Part shown: one piece after another, positions 3,408-53,828 of the stretch | Layout of the letters: each line of letters begins with the position of its first letter | Position numbering within the stretch: position 1 is the first letter of the stretch | Origin: an uncultured Candidatus Peribacteria bacterium | GTDB lineage: Bacteria; Patescibacteriota; Gracilibacteria; UBA1369; 2-02-FULL-48-14 | NCBI GenBank assembly: GCA_964601715.1 | Contig: CAZROM010000003.1 | Location: forward strand, 36,533 to 95,733 | Length of the DNA stretch: 59,201 nt | Reading direction: 5' to 3' | The notes under the pieces: generated by a model | What the model saw: only the letters and a program-made list of their open reading frames with translations | What the model was told of the DNA's origin: nothing | The model's database searches: none | Translations under genes and position numbers: made by a program

Positions 3408-3497
3408 GGGCGCGAATGAATCTTTTCGTTTCTATTCTACCTGCTTTTAAATAAATCAAAAGGCGTGTATTGTTCACTCACAATTTAGTCACACGCC

Positions 3498-5864: not shown

Positions 5865-5865
5865 T

Positions 5866-8239: not shown

Positions 8240-8397
8240 GGAGCTTTTGGGTTAAAGCTATATTTTAGTATACACTTTTCGACTGATTTGTCAATTCATG
8301 CCTGAAGTTTTAATAGTTTGGCTACTGACAGGAAAACGTTCTCTTCTTTATCATTTTGGATTTATGTGGTATAGTTCTTAGATTAACTGCGTATCGT

Positions 8398-22884: not shown

Positions 22885-22935
22885 GGGAAGGAGAGTGTGC
22901 ACGTCTCATTGAGAGAGACGCAGAATGAAGAGATT

Positions 22936-32716: not shown

Positions 32717-33238
32717 ATGGACAATACGATGCCTTCCGTTTATGAAGCCCCTCGAGGGCGCTTGCTTCCTACTTTGGTGCTCTTCACCTTTGTGCTTGGA
32801 TCTCTCTATGCAATGTATTTGCTCTTCAGCTCTTACAGTCTCAAACATTCGGTTTCGCAACTCGAAACTGACAAGGCTGAGGTGCAAAGAAAAATTGAAG
32901 TCCTGAACGATCAACAAATTCAAGAGCTCTACAACGCACAATTGCTCAGCGAAAAATTGGCTGAAAATTCCACGCGTTGGTCTCAAGTTTTGACGAGTTT
33001 GCAAAATCTCACTCCGGTTGGAGTGTATTTTGCGAGTTACGGTTTGAATGAAGATGGAACGATTCAAGTCACGGGATACGGAGAAAGTTACGACTCCGTT
33101 GCTGATTTGATTTCTGCCATGGAAAAAGCCGATGACTTCATCGGTGCCTTTGTTCCTTCAGTGACCGCAGGGAAGACCAGCGATGGTCAGTCCATTGCGA
33201 GCTTCAGCCTCACTATCCATTTGACCTCTGCACAATGA
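32717..33238 (+). CDS. pilN: PilN-like type IV pilus assembly protein
   Basis: 173 aa. Short cytoplasmic N-terminus, one TM (LLPTLVLFTFVLGSLYAMYLLF), a coiled coil, then a periplasmic domain. It directly precedes the pilO-like and pilC genes. Confidence 0.6.
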   Translation: MDNTMPSVYEAPRGRLLPTLVLFTFVLGSLYAMYLLFSSYSLKHSVSQLETDKAEVQRKIEVLNDQQIQELYNAQLLSEKLAENSTRWSQVLTSLQNLTPVGVYFASYGLNEDGTIQVTGYGESYDSVADLISAMEKADDFIGAFVPSVTAGKTSDGQSIASFSLTIHLTSAQ

Positions 33239-33753
33239 AAACCGGACAATCTTCACAACTCATGTCGATTTTGCTCCTGCTACTGATCATTGTGGGATCC
33301 GTGGTTTTTGTTTTGCCGATGCGCGATAAAATCACCGAATACGAAGCTCAAAAGGTGACTTTGACGACGGAACTCCAAACACTCGAAACGCAATACGACG
33401 ATCTTTCTGCCTTGGCAAAAGAAGTTTCGCAAAGTGAAACGGCCAAGCTCAAACTCCTTGCGTCGGTGCCCGTTGGTTACGATCAAGATTCTTTGATTTT
33501 AGAACTGACGAAGTTGGCAGAAGACACGGGATTCTCTCTCAATGCGATTTCGTTTTCTTTGGGTCAAAGTGAACTTTTTGGAAAGACCATTACGGTTGCC
33601 ACCAATGTGAAAGGGTCCTTCAATCAAATGGTGGATTTCTTGCAAAAGATTGAAGGAGCAGATCGTTTGATGCGAGTGACGGCGCTCAGTGTGCAACGCA
33701 TGAGTGCAACGGACGTGGGCTTTAATCTTGCTATAGAGGCGTATTACCAATAA
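33235..33753 (+). CDS. pilO: PilO-like type IV pilus assembly protein
   Basis: 172 aa. TM (LMSILLLLLIIVGSVVFVL), coiled coil, and the LASVPVGYDQDSLILELTKLAEDTGF pattern. 4-nt overlap with the upstream gene. Confidence 0.6.
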   Translation: MKTGQSSQLMSILLLLLIIVGSVVFVLPMRDKITEYEAQKVTLTTELQTLETQYDDLSALAKEVSQSETAKLKLLASVPVGYDQDSLILELTKLAEDTGFSLNAISFSLGQSELFGKTITVATNVKGSFNQMVDFLQKIEGADRLMRVTALSVQRMSATDVGFNLAIEAYYQ

Positions 33754-33757
33754 ATCC

Positions 33758-34915
33758 ATGGCGAACCCTTCTTTATCTAAACCCTCCGAAAAAGAAGTCA
33801 CCGTTGTTTATGGAATTTATAATTCAGCGGCCCAACCTTTTTCGGTGCGCATGAATGATTTTTTCATCGATAGGAAAAAAGTTTCGGTTCAAGAGAAATC
33901 CTATTTTTATCATTTGCTTGGGGTGATGATGGACGCTGGAATCCCCATCATGAAGGCTTTGAAAGTCTTGGCGAAAAAAACGGAGAACCCTCGTTTTGCG
34001 CGCATTGTGAACACGCTCGGTTACGACGTCGAACGTGGGAAATTGCTGAGTTTGTCGATGACCAAATTCCCGGATGTGTTTAAAGAATCCGAAATTGGAA
34101 TCATTCGCAGCGGAGAAAGCATTGGGAACTTGGCCAAGCTTTTGTTCAAGCTCGCAACGCAAACGCAACGTGCTCACACTTTGTATTTGAAAGTGCGCGG
34201 AGCTTTGATTTATCCAAGCACGGTTTTGATTGCGCTTTTGGTGTCTGGGGCGATTGTGGTGCGAGTGGTCATTCCACGCATCGATGAGTTCTTCACCCAA
34301 GCGCATTTTGAATTGCCCTTCATCACGCAAGTGGTACTGACCTTTGGACGCTTTGTTGTGAACTTCAGTTGGTTGCTGGTGATCTTTGCCGTTTTCCTTG
34401 GTTTGCTTTTGTCTTTTTACGTGAACACCGAAACAGGACGTCGTCGTTACGATGAATTCATGCTCAGCGTTCCTTTCTTCAGCGATGTGATTCGCAAGCT
34501 CAATGTGTCGCGCTTCGTGCAAATTTTGAGTCTGCTCATTGAAGCGGGAGTTCCCATTCATGAAGCGATTCGCATTGCATCTGGTGCGATGACCAACACT
34601 TTGTACAAAGATTATTTGCTGACTTTGAAAGCCGATGTGGAACGTGGAGAAAAGATTGCGGACAACTTGGCTGAGGCACCTTTCCTTTTTCCGGAGACCG
34701 TGGTGGCGATGATTTCGGTGGGGGAGAACTCAGGGCAAATTGCGGCGATTGCCGAAAAGTTGGCGGCGCATTATGAAGACGAAGTGGAGAGTTCACTCGA
34801 CACGTTTACGACTTTGCTCGAGCCCATTGTGATTGTGATCGTGGGAGTGGCGGTTGGAGTTTTGGCGCTCGCGCTGCTCGGACCGATTTTCTCCTTATCT
34901 TCTTTGGTTTCATGA
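33758..34915 (+). CDS. pilC: Type IV pilus / T2SS platform protein (GspF/PilC family)
   Basis: 385 aa with two T2SSF-type repeats (FYHLLGVMMDAGIPIMKALKVL... and FVQILSLLIEAGVPIHEAIRIA...) and three TM segments. Confidence 0.9.
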   Translation: MANPSLSKPSEKEVTVVYGIYNSAAQPFSVRMNDFFIDRKKVSVQEKSYFYHLLGVMMDAGIPIMKALKVLAKKTENPRFARIVNTLGYDVERGKLLSLSMTKFPDVFKESEIGIIRSGESIGNLAKLLFKLATQTQRAHTLYLKVRGALIYPSTVLIALLVSGAIVVRVVIPRIDEFFTQAHFELPFITQVVLTFGRFVVNFSWLLVIFAVFLGLLLSFYVNTETGRRRYDEFMLSVPFFSDVIRKLNVSRFVQILSLLIEAGVPIHEAIRIASGAMTNTLYKDYLLTLKADVERGEKIADNLAEAPFLFPETVVAMISVGENSGQIAAIAEKLAAHYEDEVESSLDTFTTLLEPIVIVIVGVAVGVLALALLGPIFSLSSLVS

Positions 34916-35505
34916 CGAAAAAATCTGCCTTCACTTTGATCGAAGTTTTGGTTGTCATCACCATCATTGGGCTTTTGACTTCCATTTTGGTTTTGAATTT
35001 TCAAGGCGTGAAAGAAAAACAGGAAATCGCTTTGCTCGCCGATAAAAGTTTGGCGATGATGCAGCAGGCGAAGGCCGATGTGCGCAGCGGAAAAATTGTG
35101 ACGAATGAAGATGGTTCGACGCAGTATCTTTGCGAAGGAGCTTTGTTCACGGTAGGCGCTCAGCCTCAGTACGTGACGATGCCTTTTTTGAGTTCTGGGG
35201 ATTGCGATTTTACGTCGCAAACTTTGGAAAATTATGGAATGGATTCGGGAGCTTCGTATGTGGGATCTCTTGAAGTGGATGGCACGCAGCCCGATTCTTT
35301 GCTCGCACTATTCGTTCCGCCTTCAGGCACTTTGCAGCTCTTCTCAGACGAAGGGGTGACGCTTTATAGTGGGGATGCTCAAGTGCGATTTGAAAGTGCG
35401 ACTTACGCGGTGGACGAAACTCAGATCGCTACGGTTTTGCAACTTTCTCAGAGTTCTGGTTTTGCTCAATTGGTGCTTCTTGATCCCAATGCCGATGCAG
35501 AATAA
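34912..35505 (+). CDS. Prepilin-type N-terminal cleavage/methylation domain protein (pilin/pseudopilin)
   Basis: MTKKSAFTLIEVLVVITIIGLLTSILV is a class III signal with Phe+1 and Glu+5, but Ala at -1. Confidence 0.88.
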   Translation: MTKKSAFTLIEVLVVITIIGLLTSILVLNFQGVKEKQEIALLADKSLAMMQQAKADVRSGKIVTNEDGSTQYLCEGALFTVGAQPQYVTMPFLSSGDCDFTSQTLENYGMDSGASYVGSLEVDGTQPDSLLALFVPPSGTLQLFSDEGVTLYSGDAQVRFESATYAVDETQIATVLQLSQSSGFAQLVLLDPNADAE

Positions 35506-36019
35506 ATCCGCATTCACACTCATCGAAACCATCATTGCGATCACGTTGATCACCGTGGTGATGACGGCTGTCACGGGTCTTATTTTAACGACCTTGCTTG
35601 CGAATGAACGTAACACTCACACCTTGCAGGCTACGTTTTTGGCGCAGGAAGGCTTGGAGGCGACCCGTTTTATGCGTGACTCGAATTGGCTGCAAAATTA
35701 CACGTGGGATGAAGGCTTGGATTTGTGGGGAGATGTGTTTCATGTTTCAGAAAGCAATCCTACGATCACTCGTTCTTTGGTAGACAAGCCTTGCTCCTCC
35801 TCTTCGTATTGTTTTGGTTTGTCTGCGGATGAAGCGGATGGAGTGGTGACCTTGGGCAGCTCGATGCAGTTCACTCGCAGTTTGACCTTTAGTTTGCTGC
35901 GCAATGAAGATGGTACTCCCGTAGAAGACGCTGTTTTGGTGACTGTAAATGTGACTTGGCTGGAACGCGGAGTGGATCGTTCGGTGGAATTGTCCACGAC
36001 TTTAACCGATTGGAAATGA
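35489..36019 (+). CDS. Prepilin-type minor pilin
   Basis: MPMQNKSAFTLIETIIAITLITVVMTAV. Start placed at the ATG at 35489 (or 35495), overlapping the upstream stop. Confidence 0.85.
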   Translation: MPMQNKSAFTLIETIIAITLITVVMTAVTGLILTTLLANERNTHTLQATFLAQEGLEATRFMRDSNWLQNYTWDEGLDLWGDVFHVSESNPTITRSLVDKPCSSSSYCFGLSADEADGVVTLGSSMQFTRSLTFSLLRNEDGTPVEDAVLVTVNVTWLERGVDRSVELSTTLTDWK

Positions 36020-36678
36020 GCTTAAAAACTTTCAAAAATCGAGAGGCCTTCACTTTGATTGAAATGATCATCGCGATCACCGTGTTCACCATTTTTATTG
36101 GCTTTGCTATTTCGGCTTATTTGACCTTTCATCGTGCGGATCAAGACGCGCTGACCAATCGAAGTTTGCTCATGGATGCGGAGGCGATTCTCAATGAACT
36201 CTCGGATGCCACTCGTGAAAATAAAATCAATTACGACGCTTACGCTTCTTCCAGCAGTGGAGGCAGTCGCACCATCACGCGAGGATTTTCGCTGCCCTCG
36301 ACTTTGTCGCCCACTTCTTCGTTATCTCTGTCTTTGGGCAATGAACTCAACGAGCAAAGTCTTTATTTGATCAGTCCCGATGGAGAAGAACAAACGGTCT
36401 ACTCATGGAATGCGGATGAACAAAGTTTGAGCGTGCAGCGTTTTGATGCCAGTGGCACAGCGATTTCGGACGCGCAAAATTTGAACTCCGATGGCATGGC
36501 CGTGACGTATGTGAACTTTCGCATTTTCCCGGATGAAAATCCTTATGATGCATCGAGCAGCACTTCTCAGTTCCAGCCCATGGTCACCTTTGATTTGAGC
36601 TTCAGCATGCCTGGACGCATGGACACGGAGCTCACCTTGGATTTGAAAACCACCGTCACTAGCCGCTTTTACCAATGA
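36016..36678 (+). CDS. Prepilin-type minor pilin
   Basis: MSLKTFKNREAFTLIEMIIAITVFTIFIGF. ATGA start/stop overlap with the upstream gene. Confidence 0.85.
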   Translation: MSLKTFKNREAFTLIEMIIAITVFTIFIGFAISAYLTFHRADQDALTNRSLLMDAEAILNELSDATRENKINYDAYASSSSGGSRTITRGFSLPSTLSPTSSLSLSLGNELNEQSLYLISPDGEEQTVYSWNADEQSLSVQRFDASGTAISDAQNLNSDGMAVTYVNFRIFPDENPYDASSSTSQFQPMVTFDLSFSMPGRMDTELTLDLKTTVTSRFYQ

Positions 36679-37823
36679 ATATAGAAAATTTGAAAACGCC
36701 TCTCCTCGACGCGGGTCCTGTCCGCTACGCGGCCACCCGGCTTCGTCGAGTTCGCTTTCAAATTTCCTTGGGTAGTCGGAGAGCGAGTGCTTTGCTGCTG
36801 TCTTTCTTTTTGATGAGTGTTTTGATTTTGGTGGCGATTTCGGTGTCTATTTTGGTGGTGAAAGACATGTCCACGGTGCGCACCATCGTGGGAGGGACTC
36901 AGGCGTATTATGCGGCGGAAGGAGTGACGGAGCGTGGGCTGCAAGATTTGAAAGACAATTTGCCTGGCTACGAGCCCAGCTATTTGGGCATCGAATTTTT
37001 GGATTCTGCGATTGCGACTTTGGTCAGTACGGCGCGAGGAAGTGACGAAACGAAAGTGGTTCCTTGCGAAGGGCAGGGCGAGGCGTGGCATGCTTTGGGC
37101 CCCAATGAATCGATCCAGATTCCCCTCTTTGCTCAAACGGATGCTGCGGGAACCATTGAACCTGCGGGAGGGCAGTACATGAATTTTTATGTTTCTTTTT
37201 ATGCGGGCCAAGATGATGGCAGTGTGGATTTGACCACGGTTCCCACTCAGGATGTTTTGCGTTGGAAGGTGCTGGGACGATCGGGCACGGACACGACCAA
37301 TCCCGGAGCTACCGAAGCGATGTCGGAATACATTCCTCTCTACAACGATGAGGGCTATTACAATGCGGATGCGCCCACCAAGTTTGGAACTGCGGATTTG
37401 GGTGGGCTGCCTCCAGGCTATCAAGATGGAAAATTTTCTTCGTCGGGAGCTAGTTTTGATGCGGGTTATCCCATCTCCACTTTTTTGGCGAATCACGTCT
37501 ACAATTATTTGGTTTTGACGAACATCATCACCGAAACCACGAACAACACAGTGATTTATTATCAGTTCTACTCCACCGATTATGCGCCGGTGTGTGAGTA
37601 TGTGAATTTGGCTGCGACGGCCACTTCGACCAACGGCTCGGCTCAACAGGATTTGAGCACCTTGGTGAAGGAAGGGGAAAACCTGCCGGTTTTTGACTTT
37701 GTGATTTATCACACGGGTCCTCAAGAGAGCAGCACAAGTTCAGGAGGAAGCACATCGTCTGCCACTTTTGAGGTTCCTTCTCTTACAGTTCCAGATTGGG
37801 CGGCGATTTTGCTTGGATCTTAG
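36675..37823 (+). CDS. PilX-N-like pilus-associated protein (no FTLIE motif)
   Basis: 382 aa. N-terminal hydrophobic helix ALLLSFFLMSVLILVAISVSILVV followed by QAYYAAEGVTERGL. Translationally coupled to the pilin genes. Confidence 0.65.
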   Translation: MNIENLKTPLLDAGPVRYAATRLRRVRFQISLGSRRASALLLSFFLMSVLILVAISVSILVVKDMSTVRTIVGGTQAYYAAEGVTERGLQDLKDNLPGYEPSYLGIEFLDSAIATLVSTARGSDETKVVPCEGQGEAWHALGPNESIQIPLFAQTDAAGTIEPAGGQYMNFYVSFYAGQDDGSVDLTTVPTQDVLRWKVLGRSGTDTTNPGATEAMSEYIPLYNDEGYYNADAPTKFGTADLGGLPPGYQDGKFSSSGASFDAGYPISTFLANHVYNYLVLTNIITETTNNTVIYYQFYSTDYAPVCEYVNLAATATSTNGSAQQDLSTLVKEGENLPVFDFVIYHTGPQESSTSSGGSTSSATFEVPSLTVPDWAAILLGS

Positions 37824-37865: not shown

Positions 37866-39314
37866 ATGGCAAAATTTTACCTTACGAATGCGATTGCTTA
37901 TGTGAATGCGGGTCCACACATGGGACATGCGCTGGAACTTTGCCAAGGTGATGCGCTCACTCGTTACCATCGTATGATTGGGGATGATGTGCGTTTTTTG
38001 GTGGGAACGGATGAACACGGAAGCAAAATCGCTCAAGTGGCTAAAGACAAAGGTTTGGAGCCTCAAGCGTTGGCGGATCAAAACAGTGCTTTGTTTGTGG
38101 AGATGAATGAAAAATTTGGAGCGGCAAACGACGACTTCATTCGCACAACCAGCGATAGACACAAACGAGGAGCTCAAAAAGTGTGGAGCCTGATTGCTGC
38201 GGCTGGAAAATTTTATGAAAAGGAATACGAAGGAAAATACTGCACGGGGTGCGAAGCCTTTATTTTGGACAAAGATTTGGTGGACGGAAAGTGTGCCATC
38301 CATTTGCGTGAGCCTGAACTTTTGAAGGAAAGAAACATCTTCTTCAAACTTTCGGAATACACCGAGGCGATCAAGGCAAAAGTGCTTTCGGGTGAACTTG
38401 AAATCAGACCCAATTCTCGACGCAATGAGTTCCTTTCTTTTTTGGAAGAAGGTTTACAAGACGTGAGTTTTTCTCGTCCTAAAACCAGTTTGAAGTGGGG
38501 GATTCAAGTTCCTGAGTACGACGATCAAGTCATGTACGTGTGGTGCGACGCGCTCACCAATTATTTGACGGCGCTGGGTTATGCGGATGATGAGGTGAAT
38601 GTTGAGAAATTTTGGCCCGCCGATGTGCATTTGATTGGAAAGGACATCATTCGTTTTCATTGCGGAATCTGGATTGGAATGCTCATGGCGGCGGGCCTCC
38701 CTCTGCCCAAAGCAGTGTACGTGCACGGATTTGTGACGAGTGAAGGACAAAAGATGAGCAAGTCGCTCGGCAATGTGGTGGATCCTATGGAGCTTTTGAA
38801 CAAGTACGGTGCGGATCCTGTGCGTTATTATTTGCTGCGCGAAATTCCTAGTGACAACGACGGAGACTTTTCTCGCGAGCGTTTCAAGGTGGTTTATAAA
38901 GATGAATTGCAAAACACTTTGGGGAATTTGGTTCGTCGCATGCTCACGCTCGCGATCAAAAACTTTGAAGGCAAAGTTCCAGTCGGGGATGGAGCTTTGC
39001 AAGCAGCCATCGATAAAGCCTGGGCTGGATTCCACGAAGGCTTCCTTGGATTTGATATGAAGGGCACGCTCGAGTCCGTCATGGAATTGGCGCGTGCTGG
39101 GAACTTTTACGTGGATAGTGAAAAACCTTGGGAGCTGGCGAAAACGGATCGAGCGCGCCTAGAAGTCGTGCTCGGAAATTTGATTGTGCTTTGCCGCGAA
39201 CTTGGAAAAATGCTTCAACCCGTGATTCCAGAAACTTCACAAAAAATCCTCACCCAGTTGGGTGAGGAATCTTTGATTCTCGGTGAGGCTTTGTTCCCTC
39301 CTCTCGAAGATTAA
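37866..39314 (+). CDS. metG: Methionyl-tRNA synthetase (short form)
   Basis: YVNAGPHMGHALE (HIGH), a CTGCEAF...GKCAIH zinc knuckle, and QKMSKSLGN (KMSKS). 482 aa. Confidence 0.95.
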   Translation: MAKFYLTNAIAYVNAGPHMGHALELCQGDALTRYHRMIGDDVRFLVGTDEHGSKIAQVAKDKGLEPQALADQNSALFVEMNEKFGAANDDFIRTTSDRHKRGAQKVWSLIAAAGKFYEKEYEGKYCTGCEAFILDKDLVDGKCAIHLREPELLKERNIFFKLSEYTEAIKAKVLSGELEIRPNSRRNEFLSFLEEGLQDVSFSRPKTSLKWGIQVPEYDDQVMYVWCDALTNYLTALGYADDEVNVEKFWPADVHLIGKDIIRFHCGIWIGMLMAAGLPLPKAVYVHGFVTSEGQKMSKSLGNVVDPMELLNKYGADPVRYYLLREIPSDNDGDFSRERFKVVYKDELQNTLGNLVRRMLTLAIKNFEGKVPVGDGALQAAIDKAWAGFHEGFLGFDMKGTLESVMELARAGNFYVDSEKPWELAKTDRARLEVVLGNLIVLCRELGKMLQPVIPETSQKILTQLGEESLILGEALFPPLED

Positions 39315-39688
39315 TTGTTTTCAGCAGGCGCTTCGGTGTCGGTTTGAACCATAGAAGCAGCGAGGTCGGCAGCGCTCACGCCAGCCGTGGTGAGGGCATC
39401 TCCACAAGTGGATTCCATTTGAGAAGTGGCAACGCTCTTAACAGTGTCTACTTCTGCAGTTCCTTGAATGGAAGCGAGGTAAGTGTCGATGTCTTCAGGC
39501 TTGTCCCATCCGTAAGTGTTCATGATGGTTCCTGTCTTTTCAGTGATCTGATCGAAAGTAACGTTTTGGTCAAAAAGCAGACAAGCGGTTTCGGCCATAG
39601 CCATTCCAGCGTTTTCAGCTTGAGTGCCAGTGGAGCCGCATGCGCTAAGCACGAGCGTGGTGAGTAGTAAGAATGCGAATTTGCGCAT
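39311..39688 (-). CDS. Small lipoprotein, last gene of the pilin/ATPase operon
   Basis: MRKFAFLLLTTLVLSAC lipobox. 125 aa. The 3' end overlaps the metG 3' end by 4 nt. Confidence 0.7.
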   Translation of the reverse strand: MRKFAFLLLTTLVLSACGSTGTQAENAGMAMAETACLLFDQNVTFDQITEKTGTIMNTYGWDKPEDIDTYLASIQGTAEVDTVKSVATSQMESTCGDALTTAGVSAADLAASMVQTDTEAPAENN

Positions 39689-39725
39689 GGATAAAATTTA
39701 GGAATTAAACATGCGGATTCTACTC

Positions 39726-40154
39726 TTAGCTTGCAGAAGAGTCCACCTGTAAGATGATGGAAATGACTCCTTGAACGATGGAGTAGGAAACCAGAACAAT
39801 GATGAGACCAGCGAGGGACCAAAAGAGTCCACGTTTTCCGCGTTCGATGCGTTCATCTTTACCGAAGGCAAAGATGTAATTGGCTCCTGCTAAAATCACA
39901 AAAAAGATGGCGATGGTCGCCATGAAGAGCAGAATTTGACTCACCATGTTTCCTACGAAAAGAATCACAGTTTGAGTGGCGGCGGTTTCTGGATGAGCAG
40001 CGTCGGTGGCAGCGGCAGTGTCCCAATCGGGAAGATTGTCGGGGCGCAATGTGTCGGGAATTTGAATGGCGGCAAAAACGCCTTGAGTCAGCATCCAAAA
40101 CAAGGTGGCAGCCAGTGCAGTTAAGAGCAGTTTTTTAAAAATTGATTTATTCAT
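39726..40154 (-). CDS. VirB2/TrbC-like (T4SS-type) pilin paralogue 4
   Basis: Signal peptide ending GVFA|A. Two hydrophobic helices are joined by the charged loop FAFGKDERIERGKRG. 142 aa. Confidence 0.75.
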   Translation of the reverse strand: MNKSIFKKLLLTALAATLFWMLTQGVFAAIQIPDTLRPDNLPDWDTAAATDAAHPETAATQTVILFVGNMVSQILLFMATIAIFFVILAGANYIFAFGKDERIERGKRGLFWSLAGLIIVLVSYSIVQGVISIILQVDSSAS

Positions 40155-41023
40155 TGAGATTGATTTTGAGTGTCGGTGAAAAGATCATCGTTCACTGTCG
40201 TGCTGTCTTGATTCAAGTTGAGGGTTGCGATTCCGACGATGATGGCGTAACCCAAGGAAATCAAAGCGAGAGCGATGGCGGACCACATGATAATGCCTTT
40301 GGCTTTGGTGACCGCTTCTTCGTTACCGCGTTCCATCACGATCAAAGCGCCTCCGTACACGAAGGAAATGAAAATCAAAAACCCAACGAAGTACATGATG
40401 TTGGTCACGATGGCAGGAACGATTTCTCCTAAAAAGTCTCCGCTGGGGAGGGAAACGCGTCCTTGCTCATCTTGGCTTTCGATCATGGTTTGCACACTGG
40501 GCAGCAAAATGCTTGGATCGTTTTTAACGTCGACGGCGTGCGCAGTGGGAACAACCCATGAAATGAGCGAAGTGTTGGCTTGAGCACTTTGTTGAGGCAG
40601 CGCCACGGAAACCACAATCGATACGATGGCGTAGGCCATCATGACAATGATGAATCCAAAAATGCTGTAACGAAGATTCGTTTTACCACGCCCCAATTTG
40701 CTTTCGTCGCCATAGGCGGTGAGGAGTTGGATGGCCGAAACCAAAATTCCTAAAAAAGCCGTGATGCCCAAGAGTCCGATTCCGATGTTGAATGCATGAG
40801 GCACAGCGGTATTTAAAACATAATCTTGCAGGGTCCCGCCTGTGGTTCCTTCAGGAGGTCCTGGAAGAAAATCAGGTTGAAAAATTTCTGGAGCATCGAC
40901 TTTTGTCGCTTCACTCGCGGTGCTGGTGGAATCGGTTGAGCTGCTTGTAGCGTCTGCCCAAACTGGACTGGCAGAGGCCAAAACAGTGAAAGCGACTAGA
41001 AATGTGAGAATTAGTTTTTTCAT
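40151..41023 (-). CDS. Tandem double VirB2/TrbC-like pilin-domain protein
   Basis: Signal peptide ending PVWA|D. Two helix-loop-helix modules have loops TAYGDESKLGRGKTN and MERGNEEAVTKAKG. 290 aa. 4-nt overlaps with both neighbours. Confidence 0.75.
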   Translation of the reverse strand: MKKLILTFLVAFTVLASASPVWADATSSSTDSTSTASEATKVDAPEIFQPDFLPGPPEGTTGGTLQDYVLNTAVPHAFNIGIGLLGITAFLGILVSAIQLLTAYGDESKLGRGKTNLRYSIFGFIIVMMAYAIVSIVVSVALPQQSAQANTSLISWVVPTAHAVDVKNDPSILLPSVQTMIESQDEQGRVSLPSGDFLGEIVPAIVTNIMYFVGFLIFISFVYGGALIVMERGNEEAVTKAKGIIMWSAIALALISLGYAIIVGIATLNLNQDSTTVNDDLFTDTQNQSQ

Positions 41024-41838
41024 CCGCCGAAGAAGTCAGGATTAATGCTGTACAGGATCAAGGCTGCCATGAAGAGCAGCACAATTCCAGAAAGCGATTG
41101 AGTGATTTTTTGCTTGGCTTCAGAAATGTCGCCACTCACTCCCGCCACGCTGATTCGCACGCCGTTCAAAATGATGGTGGCAACGGCAATGGCACCCACC
41201 GCAAAAGCCCCGAAGGTGAAGATTTGTTTCACGTACAGTTTCAAAAGCCCCATTCCTGTTGAAGCAATGATCCATTGGCGAAGTTCACAGTTGGGGTCGC
41301 CACCCGTGACGCCGCTTCCTGTGCCGTTGGCAGCGGCAGTACACTTAACATAAGTGTCTGTGTAATATGTTCTTGTTTCGTAACAGGTTCCTGTTTCATC
41401 GTAAATCAAGCAGCAAACGCCATGATACAAATTTACAATCTTATTTGTCTTGTCATCCGTTGTTGGCGTAGCAGAACTCACGACTTCGGCAACTTCTGAG
41501 ATCACCTGACTGGTGCAATCCCCTTTTTCAATGAATTTAGTGGATGGATTTTCGATGCCACAATAAGAATCGTCAGGGATTTTGTCGTTGGCGTCTTCGC
41601 TTTTTGGATCATCCACGAAAGTTTCGGAATACTTTTCGGTGTATTTCTCTTCGATGTTTTCAAGCTCGCTCTTCACGACGTCTTGTTGGTTGTCTTCGTA
41701 AATTGTTGAAGTCTGGTAGCTTGCGGCATACCCAAAATTACAAATTCCAAGCTGCATTTTGTCGGCTGCATTGGCGAGCGGTGCCACGGTGAGTAGCACG
41801 AGCATTTGAGCGAAAAGGAGGAAGGAGAAGATGCGCAT
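41020..41838 (-). CDS. Cys-rich ectodomain protein with a C-terminal VirB2/TrbC-like pilin module
   Basis: Signal peptide ending LANA|A. Eight Cys in the about 170-aa ectodomain. C-terminal helix-loop-helix with loop AGVSGDISEAKQK. 272 aa. Confidence 0.7.
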   Translation of the reverse strand: MRIFSFLLFAQMLVLLTVAPLANAADKMQLGICNFGYAASYQTSTIYEDNQQDVVKSELENIEEKYTEKYSETFVDDPKSEDANDKIPDDSYCGIENPSTKFIEKGDCTSQVISEVAEVVSSATPTTDDKTNKIVNLYHGVCCLIYDETGTCYETRTYYTDTYVKCTAAANGTGSGVTGGDPNCELRQWIIASTGMGLLKLYVKQIFTFGAFAVGAIAVATIILNGVRISVAGVSGDISEAKQKITQSLSGIVLLFMAALILYSINPDFFGG

Positions 41839-42266
41839 CAGTAGAAGAAGGATTGAACGCCTACAGCAATGTAGTAGGCGAGGAAGGCGAAGACGAGACC
41901 TAGAATGGCGGGAACGATCATGTTTTTCCCTTTTTCGAGTTTTCCTTCGTCTCCATTTGCGGTGGTGAGAAGGACGCCACTGTAGAAAATAACGAGGAAG
42001 GCGAAGGTTCCGATGAGGAGTAAAAGCACATTGATCACGCGAGCAATGATGGCGATGATGATGTTTCCATCTGTGTTTGCTTCTGCATAATCTTGGATGT
42101 TTTTACTGATCGTGGTGCTGCCATCCACGTTGTCGGTTGCCACTCCGTCGACACTGAAAACGTCGAAAACGTCGAAATTGTCTACGGTCGAAGCTTGCAC
42201 GGGGATGGGGCTAGCGAAACTGATGCTGAAGAGCAAAAGTAGGCTGGCGAGGAGTTTTCGGATCAT
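41838..42266 (-). CDS. VirB2/TrbC-like (T4SS-type) pilin paralogue 1
   Basis: Signal peptide ending PVQA|S. Helix-loop-helix with loop TTANGDEGKLEKGKN. 142 aa. 1-nt stop/start overlap with the downstream gene. Confidence 0.75.
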   Translation of the reverse strand: MIRKLLASLLLLFSISFASPIPVQASTVDNFDVFDVFSVDGVATDNVDGSTTISKNIQDYAEANTDGNIIIAIIARVINVLLLLIGTFAFLVIFYSGVLLTTANGDEGKLEKGKNMIVPAILGLVFAFLAYYIAVGVQSFFY

Positions 42267-42276
42267 GGCGTGTGAA

Positions 42277-44331
42277 CTAATCCTTAACAGTATACCTTTT
42301 TTTCAGCTTTTCTTCAACCTGTAGACGAGGTCTTGTGAGCAATTCACGCGAATGATTTTGCAGGCGTTCTTTGTGGAGCTCCGTTTCGGGCAGGATTTTG
42401 TCCACATGCACTCTGAAAACCGCTTCCAGTTCTTGGTTTCGTAAAAAGCGGCTGTAGGCCTCAAAAGGATCGAGGGAAGTGAGGTCGTTTTCAGTGAGTC
42501 CAAAGAGTGGTGCTAAACGAAGGGCATCTTCGTTGCCGGTGCGGAAGCAAACCAAGGAACCGACATTGCCCAAAATGGCTTCTTGGATTTCTTCGGGAAC
42601 TTGGGTGAGGTATTGATTTGCGAGCGTGAGGGCGAGGCCGTATTTTCGAGATTCGGCCAGCATCGAAAGCAGTGTGGGTGTGCTGAAGTTTTGGAATTCG
42701 TCGATGCTCAAGAAAACCGTGGACCGTTGGTTTTGTGGGAGGTGGGCGCGCGCGAGCAGCGCGCTTTGAATCATTGAAAGTAAAACCATGCCTAAAAAGC
42801 GACTCGCGTCTTCGCCCAGTTTTCCTTTAGAAAGGCTAACGAGCAATATTTTTTTGTCGTTCATCAGCGAGTCGATTTTGATTTTGCTTTTGGGTTGGCC
42901 AAAGATGTTTCGCAGCAGGGGCGAGGTTAAAAATGGGCCCACTTTGTTGAGGATGGGCGCGGAATGTTCTTGGCGAGCGCGCGCCTCCAAATTCAAATAT
43001 TCGTCTTCAAAAAAACGCTTCAATTCCAAGTCTTCGAGGCGTGACATTTTTTCTCTGCAAAAGTCCGCATCCGTGAGTAGACGAGGTAGATCCAGCAGAG
43101 TGCTGTTGGGACTTTGGATCAAGGTCAGCAAACAGTTGCGCAAAATGTGTTCCAGCCGTGGACCCCAACTGTGCGCCGCCAAAGTCTGGAACATTTCTAC
43201 GAGTCCCGAGGCTTGTAAGGCGGCGCTTCTTCCCAGCGTTGGCTCCAAAGGATTCAGTGCCAACGGGAAGTCTGCATCGCTGGGGTCGATCAACAGCACG
43301 TCTTTGTGACGCTCTTGTGGAATCAAACTCAGAGCGTCTTCCACCAAGTCTCCGTGCGGGTCGATGAGTACGGTGCTGCATTTTTTGCGTAGGTCTTTTT
43401 GAAAGAGCGCCAGCAGCGCGGTGGATTTTCCCATTCCTGTTTTTCCGAGCAAATACAGATGGCGTTTTCGATCTTCCTCATCCAAATCCCACGGATTCTT
43501 AAGGGGATGGGGCAGGTAGGCGGAACTTTCCATCTTCAAAAAACCGGCGACGGCATTTGGAGTCGGTGGACTCAGCAGCGAGGCCCATTCTTCGGCACTC
43601 AGCACGAGGGTTTGAGGCTTTTGGCTCAGGCTCAATTCGCCCAAGTAGGGCAAAGAAAATCCATGAAAAAAGGAAGAGAAGGCATGCGAGGTTCGGATGC
43701 TGCCGATGAAGAGCGGGCGCGAAACTTTGTCTAAAATGGCGCGTCGTGGGTCTTCTCGCTCATGCAAGGATTCAATCTGTTCTTCCTGCGTTTTCTTGGG
43801 CAATTCGGGATGCGGAAGTTGTGCTCGAATCAAAGGTCCAAAAATGCGCCGCCACGACCAAGTGAACCAGCCTTTACTTTCCCACTGATCAAAATGTCGA
43901 TCGGGCTCGAAATGAAAGGCCTTCACTTTTTTTGCGACTTTCTCACGCTTGTGTTCGGAAATCGGTTTGAAGGAAAAGTGCACGAAGGAATGGGGCGTTC
44001 GTGCAAGCACAGGGATGAGGGCATCCAAAGGATTGATGCGCGTTTTGTTGCTGCGGTCTTCGAGTTGGCTCCATCGTTTGATGGGCAAGAGTGGGCCTTT
44101 TTTTTGCTTCACCCAAAACGCGTTCCCCTCTTTAAATTCTGAAGTGAGTGGTGCATTTCGACTTCCCATGAAATGCGGAGTCCAGTCGTCTGAAGTCAGC
44201 CACTCCACTTTGCCTTTGTTTTCTCTCAGCACGATTTCAATTTTTCCATGCTTTCTTTGCAGCGTGTGGAAGAGGTGTTCGAGCTGGCGTGGATGGTATT
44301 CCTGAGTTTGGCACAGCAAAAATGGATGCAT
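42277..44331 (-). CDS. FtsK/HerA-superfamily P-loop ATPase of the VirD4/TraD/DUF87 type, soluble (no TM segment)
   Basis: 684 aa. Walker A LLGKTGMGKST (nt ~43422-43448), followed by VLIDPHGDL. Walker B VFLSIDEFQNF (nt ~42685-42710). ESRKYGLALTLANQ is a TraG/TraD C-terminal-like motif. Confidence 0.85.
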   Translation of the reverse strand: MHPFLLCQTQEYHPRQLEHLFHTLQRKHGKIEIVLRENKGKVEWLTSDDWTPHFMGSRNAPLTSEFKEGNAFWVKQKKGPLLPIKRWSQLEDRSNKTRINPLDALIPVLARTPHSFVHFSFKPISEHKREKVAKKVKAFHFEPDRHFDQWESKGWFTWSWRRIFGPLIRAQLPHPELPKKTQEEQIESLHEREDPRRAILDKVSRPLFIGSIRTSHAFSSFFHGFSLPYLGELSLSQKPQTLVLSAEEWASLLSPPTPNAVAGFLKMESSAYLPHPLKNPWDLDEEDRKRHLYLLGKTGMGKSTALLALFQKDLRKKCSTVLIDPHGDLVEDALSLIPQERHKDVLLIDPSDADFPLALNPLEPTLGRSAALQASGLVEMFQTLAAHSWGPRLEHILRNCLLTLIQSPNSTLLDLPRLLTDADFCREKMSRLEDLELKRFFEDEYLNLEARARQEHSAPILNKVGPFLTSPLLRNIFGQPKSKIKIDSLMNDKKILLVSLSKGKLGEDASRFLGMVLLSMIQSALLARAHLPQNQRSTVFLSIDEFQNFSTPTLLSMLAESRKYGLALTLANQYLTQVPEEIQEAILGNVGSLVCFRTGNEDALRLAPLFGLTENDLTSLDPFEAYSRFLRNQELEAVFRVHVDKILPETELHKERLQNHSRELLTRPRLQVEEKLKKRYTVKD

Positions 44332-44380: not shown

Positions 44381-45394
44381 TTACTCTTTAAAAAACGTCG
44401 TTGAACCTTCAACAACAGGGGCATCTTTGAGTTTGTCGGCTAAGCCGTGGAGCACACGTTTGGCTTCGTCTAAAGTTGAAATTTGCACCACTTGGGCGCG
44501 AGCTTCGCTCGCGCCATCAAAACCACGAATCAAATGCACGAAGTGTTTGCGCATTTCTTTCATGCCGTGTTCTTCACCTTTGTATTCCACGAGCAATTCT
44601 GCGTGGCGCAAATAGGTGGGCAACTTCTCCTGAAAGGTTTTAGGTGCGACGTAGGTTTCGCCATAAAACTCAGCGGCGATTTCTGCCATGAGCCACGGGT
44701 TGCCCATGGTTCCACGACCCACCATCACACCGTCCAAGTTGCCGAGTTTTTCTCGAGCATCCGCAGCGCTTTTGATGTCGCCGTTTCCGATCACAGGAAT
44801 TTTGAGATGACGCTTCACTTCGTAAATCGGTTCCCAGTCGGATTTGCCCGTGTACATTTGCTTGGCGGTTCGTCCATGAATGCTGAGCAGAGCCACTCCC
44901 GCACTTTCCATGTCTTTGCAGAATTGAATGAACCAAGGTAGATCCACTTTTTCAGAGCCGATGCGCGTTTTGACCGAAACGGGAAGTTTGGTTGCTTTGA
45001 CGGTGGCTTCGATCAACTCGAGAGCGCGGGTGGGATTTTTTAAGAGGGCGCTGCCGTGGTCGCTGGACACCACTTTTTTAGCGGGGCAGCCCATGTTGAT
45101 GTCGATGGCGTCGATGCCCATCTCCTCGATCATTTGTGCGGCACGCGCAAAGTTTTCAGGTCGTTTCCCGAAAATTTGAGCGACCAAAGGGCGCTCTTCG
45201 TTGGGATTGAAATCCAATTGTTTCCACGTCATTTTGCTGTTGTGCACCAAGCCGTCGGCACTTGTAAATTCGGTGAAACAAATCACACGAGGTTCAATGC
45301 CCTTGATGAGTTGGCGATAGGCGGTGTCGGTGTAACCGGCCATTGGCGCCAAAGCCAAGATTGGCCTTTTTGGATTGTTCCAGGAGAAAGCCAT
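44381..45394 (-). CDS. dusB: tRNA-dihydrouridine synthase
   Basis: ILALAPMAGYTD, DINMGCP and SIHGRT. 337 aa. Confidence 0.92.
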   Translation of the reverse strand: MAFSWNNPKRPILALAPMAGYTDTAYRQLIKGIEPRVICFTEFTSADGLVHNSKMTWKQLDFNPNEERPLVAQIFGKRPENFARAAQMIEEMGIDAIDINMGCPAKKVVSSDHGSALLKNPTRALELIEATVKATKLPVSVKTRIGSEKVDLPWFIQFCKDMESAGVALLSIHGRTAKQMYTGKSDWEPIYEVKRHLKIPVIGNGDIKSAADAREKLGNLDGVMVGRGTMGNPWLMAEIAAEFYGETYVAPKTFQEKLPTYLRHAELLVEYKGEEHGMKEMRKHFVHLIRGFDGASEARAQVVQISTLDEAKRVLHGLADKLKDAPVVEGSTTFFKE

Positions 45395-53264: not shown

Positions 53265-53460
53265 TACTCTTTCTCCTAAGTTTCAGGTTGTGATCCCTAA
53301 AAAAGTGCGAGAGCAACTCAATCTCAAGGCAGGGCTCAAGTTCCAGATTTTTGCTTATCAAGGACGAATTGAATTGGTACCCGATGCGCCGATTTCTGCA
53401 CTTCGAGGGGCTTTCCCAAAGTTAACGCCAATCGTTCGCGAACCCGATCGAGAACTATGA
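53257..53460 (+). CDS. vapB: AbrB/SpoVT-family antitoxin (VapB-type)
   Basis: 67 aa. ITLSPKFQVVIPKKVREQLNLKAGLKFQI is a swapped-hairpin motif. 4-nt overlap with the PIN gene. Confidence 0.85.
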   Translation: MTITLSPKFQVVIPKKVREQLNLKAGLKFQIFAYQGRIELVPDAPISALRGAFPKLTPIVREPDREL

Positions 53461-53828
53461 ATGACATATTAGATTCATCGGCGTGGATAGCGTATTTCAC
53501 CAACGAAAAAGCAGCGGATCTTTTCGCAAAGATCGTGGAATCTTATGATTATGTCGTTCCTTCCATCACGATTTATGAGGTCTATAAAAAGTTTCTCACG
53601 CTCTATGACGAAACGACGGCGGTGACGGTGATTTCGCACATGCAAAAGGGAAGAGTCGTAGAACTCACCGACTACATGGCCATTTGGGCGAGTAAGCTTA
53701 GCAAAGACCTGAATTTGCCCATGGCGGACAGCATCATTTTGGCAACAGCTTACGCAACCAATTCAACCCTTTGGACGCTGGATGCCGACTTTAAAGGAAT
53801 AGAGGGAGTGGAGTATTGTGGGGCTTAA
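53457..53828 (+). CDS. vapC: PIN-domain ribonuclease toxin (VapC-type)
   Basis: 123 aa. N-terminal ILDSSAWIAY (Asp), an E in ITIYEVYKK, DSIILATA and TLDADF as acidic active-site positions. Confidence 0.85.
   Translation: MNDILDSSAWIAYFTNEKAADLFAKIVESYDYVVPSITIYEVYKKFLTLYDETTAVTVISHMQKGRVVELTDYMAIWASKLSKDLNLPMADSIILATAYATNSTLWTLDADFKGIEGVEYCGA

Follow-up and report, generated by a model that had tools for sequence, protein, structure and literature searches.

An anchor-less TrwB/VirD4-like ATPase coupled to four PF18895-type hairpin proteins in Peregrinibacteria: a probable module of a dispersed patescibacterial T4SS

We analysed a 59,201-nt stretch of DNA, hereafter the window, from an uncultured Candidatus Peribacteria bacterium (contig CAZROM010000003.1, positions 36,533 to 95,733), which carries a cassette of six open reading frames (ORFs) on the minus strand at 39311-44331. 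An earlier note had described six linked minus-strand genes here, and its coordinates and gaps match ours. The first gene encodes a T4CP-like (VirD4/TrwB-type) ATPase of 684 aa (42277..44331) and is followed on the same strand by pil1 (41838..42266; 142 aa), pil2 (41020..41838; 272 aa), pil3 (40151..41023; 290 aa), pil4 (39726..40154; 142 aa) and a gene for a small lipoprotein (39311..39688; 125 aa), with intergenic spacings from the ATPase to the lipoprotein of +10, -1, -4, -4 and +37 nt. Two terminator-like hairpins flank the cassette on the minus strand, both from a consensus scan in which the regional count of such sites is not above that of shuffled sequence. One (39247..39268; 9-bp stem with six G-C pairs, then TTTTTT) lies 43 nt past the lipoprotein stop codon, within the 3' end of the convergent MetRS gene, and is probably the 3' end of the transcription unit; the other (44396..44417), in the 3' end of the upstream Dus gene and 65 nt ahead of the ATPase start codon, may be its 5' boundary. 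The 49-nt gap between Dus and the ATPase gene showed no promoter-like site. The site is a stable housekeeping neighbourhood, not a mobile element, and type IV pilus genes always adjoin the block. As the earlier note had held, the usual T4SS partners are missing from the window: Pfam scans of its ~49 further ORFs revealed no VirB4, VirB6, VirB8-11, VirB1 or relaxase, no further T4SS gene was found in the window or within +/-10 kb in seven relatives, and neither the cassette nor the window encodes a polytopic channel protein resembling CedA/VirB6.

The ATPase is a TrwB/VirD4-like coupling protein (T4CP) with intact catalytic motifs. The motifs attributed to it previously (Walker A GKTGMGKST, IDPHGDL, Walker B SIDEFQNF and ESRKYGLALTLANQ) are all present, and 28 homologues show no variation in Walker A (G296-S303) or Walker B (D544 E545). 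Residues 1-285 form a DUF8128-like N-domain that aligns with the DUF8128 region of the homologue P0082, and residues 286-684 form a P-loop motor with an all-alpha domain (Walker A at 296-303, Walker B at 544-545). In Pfam searches, the protein scores 45.1 bits against TrwB_AAD_bind (cut-off 20.5) and also matches DUF87 and TraG-D_C, the latter above its threshold. Its AF2 model (pLDDT 88) matches TrwB in Foldseek with E = 1e-11 to 1e-12 and a target-normalised TM-score (TMt) of 0.6-0.66; DotL and Cagbeta are matched as well, TrwB being the best structural match with a coherent superposition. The TraD/VirD4-like character proposed for the ATPase is thus borne out, as is its lack of a TM segment, no hydrophobic 19-mer exceeding the TM threshold. 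We rejected assignment as a VirB4-type ATPase, since the score against TIGR00929 is 17 bits against a cut-off of 643 and alignment with a Patescibacteria VirB4 is confined to the Walker B region, and as a generic HerA protein, since the TrwB_AAD_bind threshold is passed and the AlphaFold model superposes on TrwB. Matches to the NCBIfam model CedD (E = 1e-6, 27.7 bits, cut-off 600) and to CedB are partial. The motor also matches HerA models and, from the PADLOC defence set, the ATPase mad8 (E = 2e-18); no MADS or other defence genes lie beside the cassette.

Each of the four small proteins is a membrane hairpin protein of the PF18895 type. Together they carry five modules of the Pfam T4SS_pilin family (PF18895; E = 4e-10 to 1.3e-4), pil3 scoring above the 26.6-bit cut-off (40.0 bits) and pil1, pil2 and pil4 below it (25.6, 22.5 and 23.7 bits, respectively), and orthologues of all four bear precomputed PF18895 matches. 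Each has an N-terminal hydrophobic segment followed by one helix-loop-helix hairpin, or by two in pil3, and the five loops quoted in the earlier note are all found. Hydrophobicity and AxA motifs predict that the N-terminal segments are cleaved signal peptides. In pil1, the signal peptide is followed by an ectodomain of ~45 aa, a hairpin with the loop GDEGKLEKGK and an invariant QSFFY end; in pil2, it is followed by a ~170-aa ectodomain with eight conserved cysteines, a pattern seen in five orthologues, then a C-terminal hairpin (loop GDISEAKQK) and an INPxFF end. Against a custom pilin HMM built in this analysis, these two score 83 and 71 bits. Behind its signal peptide, pil3 has two tandem hairpins (loops GDESKLGRGK and GNEEAVTKAK), and so four TM helices; it matches PF18895 in two stretches, a tandem layout kept in all orthologues, and scores 27 bits against the NCBIfam Mbov_0395 pilin-like model. 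The best-conserved of the pilin paralogues is pil4, with a signal peptide, a short ectodomain bearing a conserved PETAATQT motif and the hairpin loop GKDERIERGK; most of its 74 orthologues have a precomputed PF18895 match, and its AF2 model (pLDDT 82) has helices at 3-31, 55-94 and 100-141. The proposal that these proteins are VirB2/TrbC-like stands for hairpin architecture and PF18895 membership but not for sequence homology: hhalign gave a probability of 0.5% for classical VirB2/TrbC, no PDB sequence was matched, and Foldseek matches were unspecific. The likeness to VirB2/TrbC is one of architecture only, without demonstrable sequence homology. The lipoprotein has an LSAC lipobox (Cys19) and two more conserved cysteines, and its Pfam and NCBIfam matches are at the level of the lipobox only; an orthologue lies 3' of pil4 in most loci and is absent from three (L003, L108 and L114).

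Across 14 distinct Peregrinibacteria/Gracilibacteria lineages the block keeps its chromosomal position, in a neighbourhood (RNR ... Dus-ATPase-4 pilins-lipoprotein-MetRS-T4P genes) conserved down to 44% ATPase identity, and ~19 putative shared contigs join the ATPase match list to that of pil4. Since the modules match PF18895 and the gene order recurs in these 14 lineages, the cassette is not a product of chance. Orthologous pilins are 39-59% identical, similar to the ATPase (47-60%), and paralogous pilin modules 18-34%; the pilins are a fixed orthologous set of four, not a variable array. Conservation of the cassette as a unit holds in that the ATPase lies directly upstream of pil1 in 12 of the 14 lineages, but fails in that two have lost it. 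In these two (CP064962.1 and L100), one of them a complete 1.34-Mb chromosome, the ATPase is cleanly absent and all pilins and the lipoprotein are intact, demonstrating that it is dispensable for retention of the pilin block. The core is therefore the pilin set, to which the ATPase is an accessory; this speaks against pilus assembly being driven by one ATPase alone. In-frame ATPase-pil1 fusions occur in five clusters (P0009, P0030, P0032, P0040 and P0055) at three or more separate places in the ATPase tree, and the fusion arose independently at least three times. The signal peptide and AxA site are retained at the junction in every fusion cluster, and the fusion frame in L003 is stop-free under either genetic code; the fusions could nevertheless be translated as two proteins via the retained internal ATG. 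Cassette-type ATPases all lack a TM helix; distant homologues (~33% identical) have an N-terminal TM helix in ~45 of the 53 listed and DUF8128 in 46 of the 53, and of 79 loci with a distant paralogue, 78 have no pilin gene next to it. Another Patescibacterium (L083) encodes, within 14 kb, a T4CP of the cassette ATPase family, a VirB4-like ATPase and six tandem pilins, and a profile built from the cassette modules finds this six-pilin array (E = 1e-17 to 1e-22) and nothing else.

We consider it probable, if by no means certain, that the cassette represents, in Peregrinibacteria (GTDB class Gracilibacteria), the 'VirB2-like pilin array' of the Patescibacteria T4SS with a lineage-specific anchor-less T4CP paralogue attached, and that dispersed T4SS parts assemble the fibre. 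A module of a larger or dispersed apparatus, with VirB4 presumed present, is more likely than a self-contained mini-system; of the two alternatives in the earlier note, the dispersed one is thus preferred. VirB4 occurs in 2,417 of 3,035 Patescibacteria genomes (80%), a figure that is an extrapolation for the lineage studied here, since no genome in that 2025 survey is named Peregrinibacteria or Peribacter (PMC12102498). The same survey counted 441 pilin arrays and 5,713 T4CPs, the T4CPs mostly far from virB4, and reported that T4SS components are dispersed and VirB6 homologues absent in Gracilibacteria. It also found the T4CP of S. epibionticum to be non-essential, its authors suggesting that T4CPs were possibly exapted for other functions. 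Patescibacterial pilin arrays and scattered T4CPs are thus known already, from descriptions of 2023-2025, and a stripped-down standalone system, as originally put forward, is not upheld, both gene families being known parts of the Patescibacteria T4SS (PMC12102498). The tight coupling of T4CP and pilins appears to be a new variant, and we agree with the earlier note in knowing of no experimental description of the mechanism of such a cassette.

In our model, the four pilins would be exported by Sec, with their two termini outside and their short basic loop on the cytoplasmic side, and would make up a heteromeric pool in the membrane from which a short fibre or conduit is built, with the Cys-rich ectodomain of pil2 and the lipoprotein on the outer face. 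Pil1 would hold an ATPase hexamer at the membrane, non-covalently in the window organism and, in the fused forms, through a covalent link or via the retained signal peptide as a tail anchor. The membrane-held ATPase may then feed or gate a substrate, DNA or protein; alternatively, by analogy with T4CPs in conjugation systems, it might switch the apparatus between fibre-building and transfer. Fibre assembly would most likely require T4SS parts from other genomic loci, a VirB4-type ATPase among them. The constant position of the block beside type IV pilus genes could also point to a different partnership.

Another possible explanation, though an unlikely one, is a DNA import module of the Ced/Ted kind, in which a pilin-like conduit admits DNA that the VirD4-like ATPase pulls from a host or neighbouring cell, on the model of CedD with CedA1/CedA2 in Sulfolobales. 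This explanation fits the ATPase's signature of a T4CP DNA-binding domain, its partial CedD (E = 1e-6) and CedB matches and the adjoining type IV pilus genes, and in Saccharibacteria the T4SS has been proposed to take part in acquiring nucleotides (PMC11665869). However, 27.7 bits against a 600-bit cut-off for CedD denotes similarity at the level of the motor only, a CedA/VirB6-like channel protein is lacking from the cassette and window, and sequence cannot tell direction or substrate. Moreover, freshwater members of the class Gracilibacteria (order UBA1369, former Peregrinibacteria) reportedly encode the synthesis of PRPP and of purines from IMP to ATP (PMC9166423), making DNA less necessary as a source of nucleotides.

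Quite improbable, in our estimate, is an autonomous minimal pilus machine, in which the soluble T4CP-like ATPase takes the role of VirB4, extracting the four pilins from the membrane and polymerising them into a heteromeric filament unaided by further T4SS components. Strict operon linkage, recurrent ATPase-pil1 fusion, the lack of other T4SS genes in the window and around the locus in seven relatives, and the reported absence of VirB6 from Gracilibacteria (PMC12102498) all speak for it, and the earlier note had offered such a system, one soluble ATPase assembling a multi-pilin filament. Against it stand the two lineages that retain the four pilins and lipoprotein without the ATPase and the T4CP-type, rather than VirB4-type, identity of the latter (17 bits against the TIGR00929 cut-off of 643); in systems studied to date, VirD4 is required for transfer, not for pilus assembly, although it modulates piliation, and T4CPs are unneeded for pilus biogenesis (PMC13463995). 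Least probable is that PF18895 is a misleading label and the locus no secretion or pilus device, its hairpin proteins organising the envelope or membrane and an exapted HerA/FtsK-type ATPase serving in DNA handling or defence: three of the four small proteins fall just under the cut-off, solved pilins show no significant similarity, mad8 and HerA models match the motor and the neighbourhood is a housekeeping one, yet the orthologues of pil1-pil4 carry precomputed PF18895 matches, the module profile singles out the L083 array beside VirB4 and a T4CP, no MADS or defence genes adjoin the cassette, and TrwB is the best coherent structural match of the ATPase.

The closest known system is the Patescibacteria T4SS with VirB2-like pilin arrays (Southlakia epibionticum ML1; Wang et al. 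2023; Quinonero-Coronel et al. 2025, PMC12102498; review PMC12857230), which shares with the cassette tandem divergent PF18895 paralogues (~25% identity), VirD4-type T4CP homologues, a chromosomal location, the absence of a relaxase and monoderm, host-dependent bacteria as bearers. Those arrays adjoin virB4, whereas the cassette array lies directly behind a TM-less T4CP paralogue, sometimes fused to the first pilin, and is a fixed orthologous four that includes a tandem double pilin and one with a Cys-rich ectodomain, followed by a lipoprotein. With TrwB (R388), VirD4 and TraD, the ATPase shares the fold of P-loop motor and all-alpha domain (TMt 0.6-0.66) and the ESRKYG...ANQ motif region; it differs in lacking their N-terminal two-helix TM domain, in its extra ~285-aa DUF8128-like N-domain, in having no relaxase or T4SS channel genes nearby, and in being genetically coupled to pilins, classical T4CPs being uncoupled and dispensable for pilus assembly. 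The Ced/Ted systems of Crenarchaeota (CedA, CedA1/A2, CedB, CedD) are likewise chromosomal T4SS derivatives without a relaxase in which a VirD4-like ATPase occurs together with small VirB2-like hairpin proteins, and a TM domain is likewise missing from some CedD orthologues (PMC11823120). Ced, however, needs a VirB4-like ATPase (CedB) and the polytopic CedA, both missing from the cassette, and its pilins lack signal peptides (PMC11823120), which are predicted in those of the cassette.

The best NCBIfam match of all four small proteins (12-27 bits, below the 40-bit cut-off) is the Mbov_0395 pilin-like protein of a Mycoplasma ICE, which is accompanied by Mbov_0397 VirB4 (NF045849 / NF045975) and whose model describes a monoderm 'pilin-like conjugal transfer protein'. 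There the pilin-like gene travels with VirB4 on a mobile element; here the pilins are chromosomal and accompany a T4CP. Gram-positive plasmids also encode TM-less T4CPs, among them TraJ of pIP501, and a small membrane protein is said to recruit these. The cassette ATPase resembles TraJ in idea, as a soluble coupling ATPase that a separate small TM protein would bring to the membrane, but its candidate tether belongs to the pilin family, and gene fusions support the link.

The ATPase of the cassette (42277-44331, minus strand; 684 aa) is a type IV coupling protein (T4CP), neither a VirB4 nor a generic HerA, as judged from its profile scores, its fold, the relationship of its N-terminal domain and the little that it shares with a VirB4-like protein. 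In Pfam it scores above the thresholds for TrwB_AAD_bind (PF10412; 45.1 bits, cut-off 20.5) and TraG-D_C (PF12696; 24.0 bits, cut-off 22), falls marginally below that for PF02534 (20.0 bits, cut-off 20.1) and also exceeds that for DUF87. Its NCBIfam matches are VirD4/TraD/CedD-type models, all far under their equivalog cut-offs (including CD1115 and TraD), and we therefore place it in the T4CP superfamily without assigning it to a named subfamily. An AlphaFold2 model built from 28 homologues (pLDDT 88) contains the RecA-like nucleotide-binding domain and the all-alpha domain of TrwB, on which residues ~286-684 superpose (Foldseek E = 1e-11 to 1e-12; target-normalised TM-score 0.59-0.66; ~410 columns); DotL (6sz9) and Cagbeta (8dol) were further matches, and HerA and VirB4 looser ones. 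The earlier note had described an FtsK/HerA-superfamily protein with TraD/TraG-like features and an unassigned N-terminal domain. The TraD/TraG likeness holds, the generic FtsK/HerA label gives way to the T4CP indicated by profiles and fold, and the N-terminal domain, from residue 81, aligns with the part of the homologue P0082 (916 aa) that precedes the motor. This alignment (34% identity, 659 columns) continues as a single stretch through the motor, and the N-terminal Pfam domain of P0082 is DUF8128 (PF26449). A VirB4 identity was rejected at 17.4 bits against TIGR00929 (VirB4_CagE; cut-off 643) and 11 bits against AAA_10; hhalign against the VirB4-like protein of L083, a locus in a Patescibacterium of another class, aligned the Walker B region alone (probability 39%). 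The motor (window 42277-43476, minus strand) is also matched by the PADLOC defence ATPase mad8 (E = 2e-18) and by several HerA defence models. We rejected a defence-system reading, since these matches cover the motor alone and no partner defence genes are adjacent, and we read them as similarity at the level of the motor.

The N-terminal transmembrane (TM) anchor of T4CPs is missing from the cassette ATPase, in which no hydrophobic 19-mer reaches 1.6 in a hydropathy scan (maximum 1.52). T4CPs without a TM segment are known, so this does not bar it from the superfamily. No cassette-type protein among the best 120 ATPase homologues carries its own TM helix; an N-terminal one is present in ~45, and DUF8128 in 46, of 53 listed homologues that are more distant (~33% identity, mostly 780-950 aa). 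In five cassette-type clusters (P0009, P0030, P0032, P0040 and P0055), represented on several independent contigs, the ATPase is fused in frame to pil1, the first pilin. The fused clusters occupy at least three separate places in a neighbour-joining tree of the ATPase, and the Met-Lys/Arg-Lys signal peptide of pil1, with its AxA site, is retained at every junction. The fusions provide Rosetta-stone evidence of a physical partnership between the ATPase and pil1, and they suggest that the missing TM domain is replaced by pil1 or by its signal peptide in the role of a tail anchor. Of 79 loci of distant paralogues and T4CP relatives across Patescibacteria, 78 have no pilin gene within 10 kb. A wider linkage of T4CPs to pilins was rejected on this count and on that of P0067 and P0111, T4CPs from outside the lineage that lack a TM segment and are not flanked by pilins either.

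The four small proteins encoded behind this ATPase all match the Pfam T4SS_pilin family, PF18895. Against the family cut-off of 26.6 bits, pil3 (40151-41023, minus; 290 aa, two modules) scores 40.0, while pil1 (41838-42266, minus; 142 aa), pil4 (39726-40154, minus; 142 aa) and pil2 (41020-41838, minus; 272 aa) fall slightly under it at 25.6, 23.7 and 22.5; orthologues of these last three have precomputed PF18895 matches. Searches with a profile of the five window modules recover every orthologue at 70-88 bits, as well as the six-gene pilin array of L083, and nothing besides, and profile comparison unites the modules and that array in one coherent family. The architecture is that of PF18895, a signal peptide and two hydrophobic helices with a short charged loop: a hydropathy scan gives each small protein an N-terminal hydrophobic segment followed by one helix-loop-helix hairpin (two in pil3), and an AlphaFold2 model of pil4 (pLDDT 82) consists of a signal helix and then a long hairpin (helices 55-94 and 100-141). 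The hairpin loops are kept in orthologues. The best NCBIfam match of the four, under its cut-off, is a Mycoplasma ICE 'pilin-like conjugal transfer protein'. Sequence homology to the classical VirB2/TrbC pilins could not be shown, there being no match to PF04956 (MPF-T) at E <= 1, an hhalign alignment with seven bona fide VirB2/TrbC sequences that is in register at a probability of 0.5% (E = 0.11), and no PDB chain matching the pilin profile at E <= 10. Foldseek with the pil4 model returned generic helical hairpins (best E = 0.63, no pilin in the top 50), short hairpins carrying little signal. VirB2/TrbC-type pilins, as first proposed from the sequence, are thus upheld in architecture and in the PF18895 assignment and not in sequence or profile homology to the classical proteins; the label 'VirB2-like' has as its basis that architecture, the PF18895 assignment and the genomic company of the family in other Patescibacteria.

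All six minus-strand ORFs read in the earlier note were recovered at the coordinates given, along with the motifs it quoted from the ATPase and all five of its loops. From the ATPase to the lipoprotein, the spacings are +10, -1, -4, -4 and +37 nt. The ATGA overlaps have TGA as a stop, indicating that the organism uses the standard genetic code. An artefact of genetic code 25, considered for both the fusions and the window genes, was rejected on the same stops and because the ORFs are identical under both codes. The lipoprotein (39311-39688, minus; 125 aa) has a lipobox and a position in the locus compatible with a VirB7-like T4SS lipoprotein, has no family match in Pfam or NCBIfam, and is missing from three of the loci examined. 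Its gene overlaps that of MetRS (37866-39314, plus) tail to tail by 4 nt. A terminator-like bidirectional hairpin (39247-39268) lies 43 nt past the stop codon of the lipoprotein gene, within the 3' coding end of MetRS, and a second is found where the upstream Dus gene ends, both as consensus matches only.

The closest homologues of the ATPase form 66 clusters (44-99% identity) from metagenomes, the named sources being Candidatus Peregrinibacteria or Gracilibacteria. Across look-ups and scans, 14 distinct lineages could be assessed. In all 14, pil1-pil2-pil3-pil4 occupy the same chromosomal place, with Dus on one side and, on the other, MetRS and type IV pilus genes (PilN/O/C with minor pilins); the lipoprotein lies downstream of the pilins in most. 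About 19 contigs, equated by nucleotide count, are common to the match lists of the ATPase and pil4. Conservation of the cassette as a unit holds for gene order and, in 12 of the 14 lineages, for an ATPase directly upstream of pil1; from two the ATPase is gone. Orthologues of the pilins (39-59% identity) and of the ATPase (47-60%) are similarly conserved, whereas paralogous pilin modules share just 18-34%. The orthologue groups carry distinct signatures: a terminal QSFFY in pil1, eight conserved cysteines within the 170-aa ectodomain of pil2, and a tandem layout without exception in pil3. These identities and signatures, set against the low identity of paralogues, argue that pil1-pil4 are a fixed heteromeric set rather than a hypervariable array. 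An ORF of 227-233 aa without a Pfam match occupies the Dus-ATPase gap in two relatives (L003 9241-9924; L089 5118-5813), and a similar one lies between Dus and pil1 in L100 (297-998); the window is without it, its Dus-ATPase gap being only 49 nt.

The pilin block persists without the cassette ATPase. CP064962.1, a complete chromosome of 1.34 Mb, represents the closest relative among those examined (identity 89% for Dus, 82% for MetRS); in its segment 440411-460839, 31 nt separate Dus from an intact block of pil1-pil4 and the lipoprotein. No trace of the ATPase was found there by tblastn, and none of the homologues listed could be assigned to this chromosome as a cassette-type ATPase. The second lineage without the ATPase, L100, is unrelated (58% identity between its Dus and that of CP064962.1) and likewise has four intact pilins and the lipoprotein. 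That the pilins were kept through two losses of the ATPase indicates that the block is independent of it for its upkeep. The lipoprotein of CP064962.1 is unusually diverged, at 39% identity as against 48-55% in three relatives from among the more distant.

Pfam scans of ~49 further ORFs in the 59-kb window found no VirB4, VirB6, VirB8-11, VirB1, relaxase or polytopic candidate, which bears out the claim that the usual T4SS partners are absent from it. They describe an ordinary chromosome (SecA, FtsH, FtsK, tRNA synthetases, RNR, phosphoketolase/Ack/Pta, type IV pilus genes). The protein of the first window gene had an exact match on one 20-kb contig only, which stops at the same point as the window. 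The type IV pilus set (32717-37823, plus) comprises PilN, PilO, PilC (T2SSF) and four to five N_methyl minor pilins, among them a PilX-like ORF of 382 aa, and is convergent to the pilin cassette across MetRS in every relative examined. Proteins of 663 aa (275-2266, plus) and 431 aa (21607-22902, minus) have one TM segment and no Pfam match, and one of 1252 aa (8356-12114, plus) matches DUF5715 only. A PIN-domain protein, possibly the toxin of a toxin-antitoxin pair (53457-53828, plus), lies where G+C is lower (0.42 at 52-54 kb). Acetate kinase, phosphoketolase (XFP) and phosphate acetyltransferase are clustered at 2256-6786; among freshwater CPR classes, pta has been reported from Gracilibacteria only (PMC9166423), with which its presence here is consistent, supporting the taxonomic placement. 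In L083 (4687-18649), a VirB4-like ATPase of 621 aa (P-loop_TraG, AAA_10), a T4CP from the family of the window ATPase and six tandem PF18895-like pilin genes lie together within 14 kb. Since both families accompany a VirB4-like ATPase there, the T4CP and the pilins belong elsewhere to one gene set. The VirB4-like protein of L083 had no match in viral contigs.

The family identities, topology, conserved order, missing anchor, fusions and losses observed lead us to propose the following mechanism as the most probable. The four small proteins would be exported by Sec as hairpins, with their basic loops toward the cytoplasm, and would form a heteromeric membrane pool from which a short fibre or conduit could be built, pil2's ectodomain and the lipoprotein lying on the outer face. 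A T4CP hexamer would dock on pil1 and either deliver or gate substrate, or toggle the apparatus between fibre building and transfer, and assembly would rely on a VirB4-type ATPase encoded elsewhere. A Ced-like DNA importer is functionally possible, yet we consider it unlikely, given that CedA and CedB have no counterpart here and that the resemblance is confined to the motor. With two losses of the ATPase and its identity as a T4CP, it is quite improbable that the cassette is an autonomous pilus machine, with a pilin-tethered VirD4-like ATPase as the only motor of a VirB4-independent apparatus made from four VirB2-like proteins; if it were, this two-component 'conjugative-type' fibre or conduit would be the simplest T4SS derivative known and, in genomes without VirB4, the simplest T4SS-type machine. 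Least likely is a non-T4SS membrane complex with an exapted ATPase, against which stands the PF18895 coherence of the modules with the L083 array.

The proposed VirB4-dependent arrangement can be set beside what is known of related systems. A 2025 survey of Patescibacteria centred on virB4 found VirB4 in 2,417 of 3,035 genomes and counted 441 pilin arrays (2-11 genes each); of its 5,713 T4CP homologues just 148 lie near virB4, the components are dispersed in Gracilibacteria, and the T4CP of S. epibionticum proved non-essential (PMC12102498). It makes no mention of T4CP-pilin linkage, and the genomes listed in the accessible part of its dataset include none named Peregrinibacteria or Peribacter (PMC12102498). 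In the only species tested, epibiotic growth requires the Patescibacteria T4SS, whose function is described as completely unknown (PMC11665869). By CARD-FISH, cells of the order UBA1369 have been observed on small prokaryotes, to which they were attached (PMC9166423). The assignment of the cassette to T4SSs in the first reading was right, with a T4CP-type ATPase and PF18895 pilins; its headline of a minimal system is unsupported, because both components are in families already described for Patescibacteria. Two features appear to be new: in the Peregrinibacteria lineage a T4CP paralogue without an anchor is strictly coupled to, and has recurrently been fused with, a fixed four-gene pilin set, and the cassette ATPase has been lost repeatedly. 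The lineage thereby offers a natural experiment in three states, the ATPase being without its own anchor, fused to one pilin, or lost. Ced/Ted differs in having a VirB4-like CedB and a polytopic CedA, and no polytopic membrane protein is encoded in the cassette or window; the window ATPase scores 27.7 bits against CedD (NF053655; cut-off 600) and 12.5 bits against CedB. Classical VirD4 is required for transfer and not for pilus assembly, in agreement with an accessory, losable ATPase, and when engaged it suppresses piliation (PMC13463995). The direct T4CP-pilin contact predicted by the fusions, with the pil1 cytoplasmic loop or signal-anchor as candidate contacts, fits this control of piliation by VirD4 proteins in classical systems.
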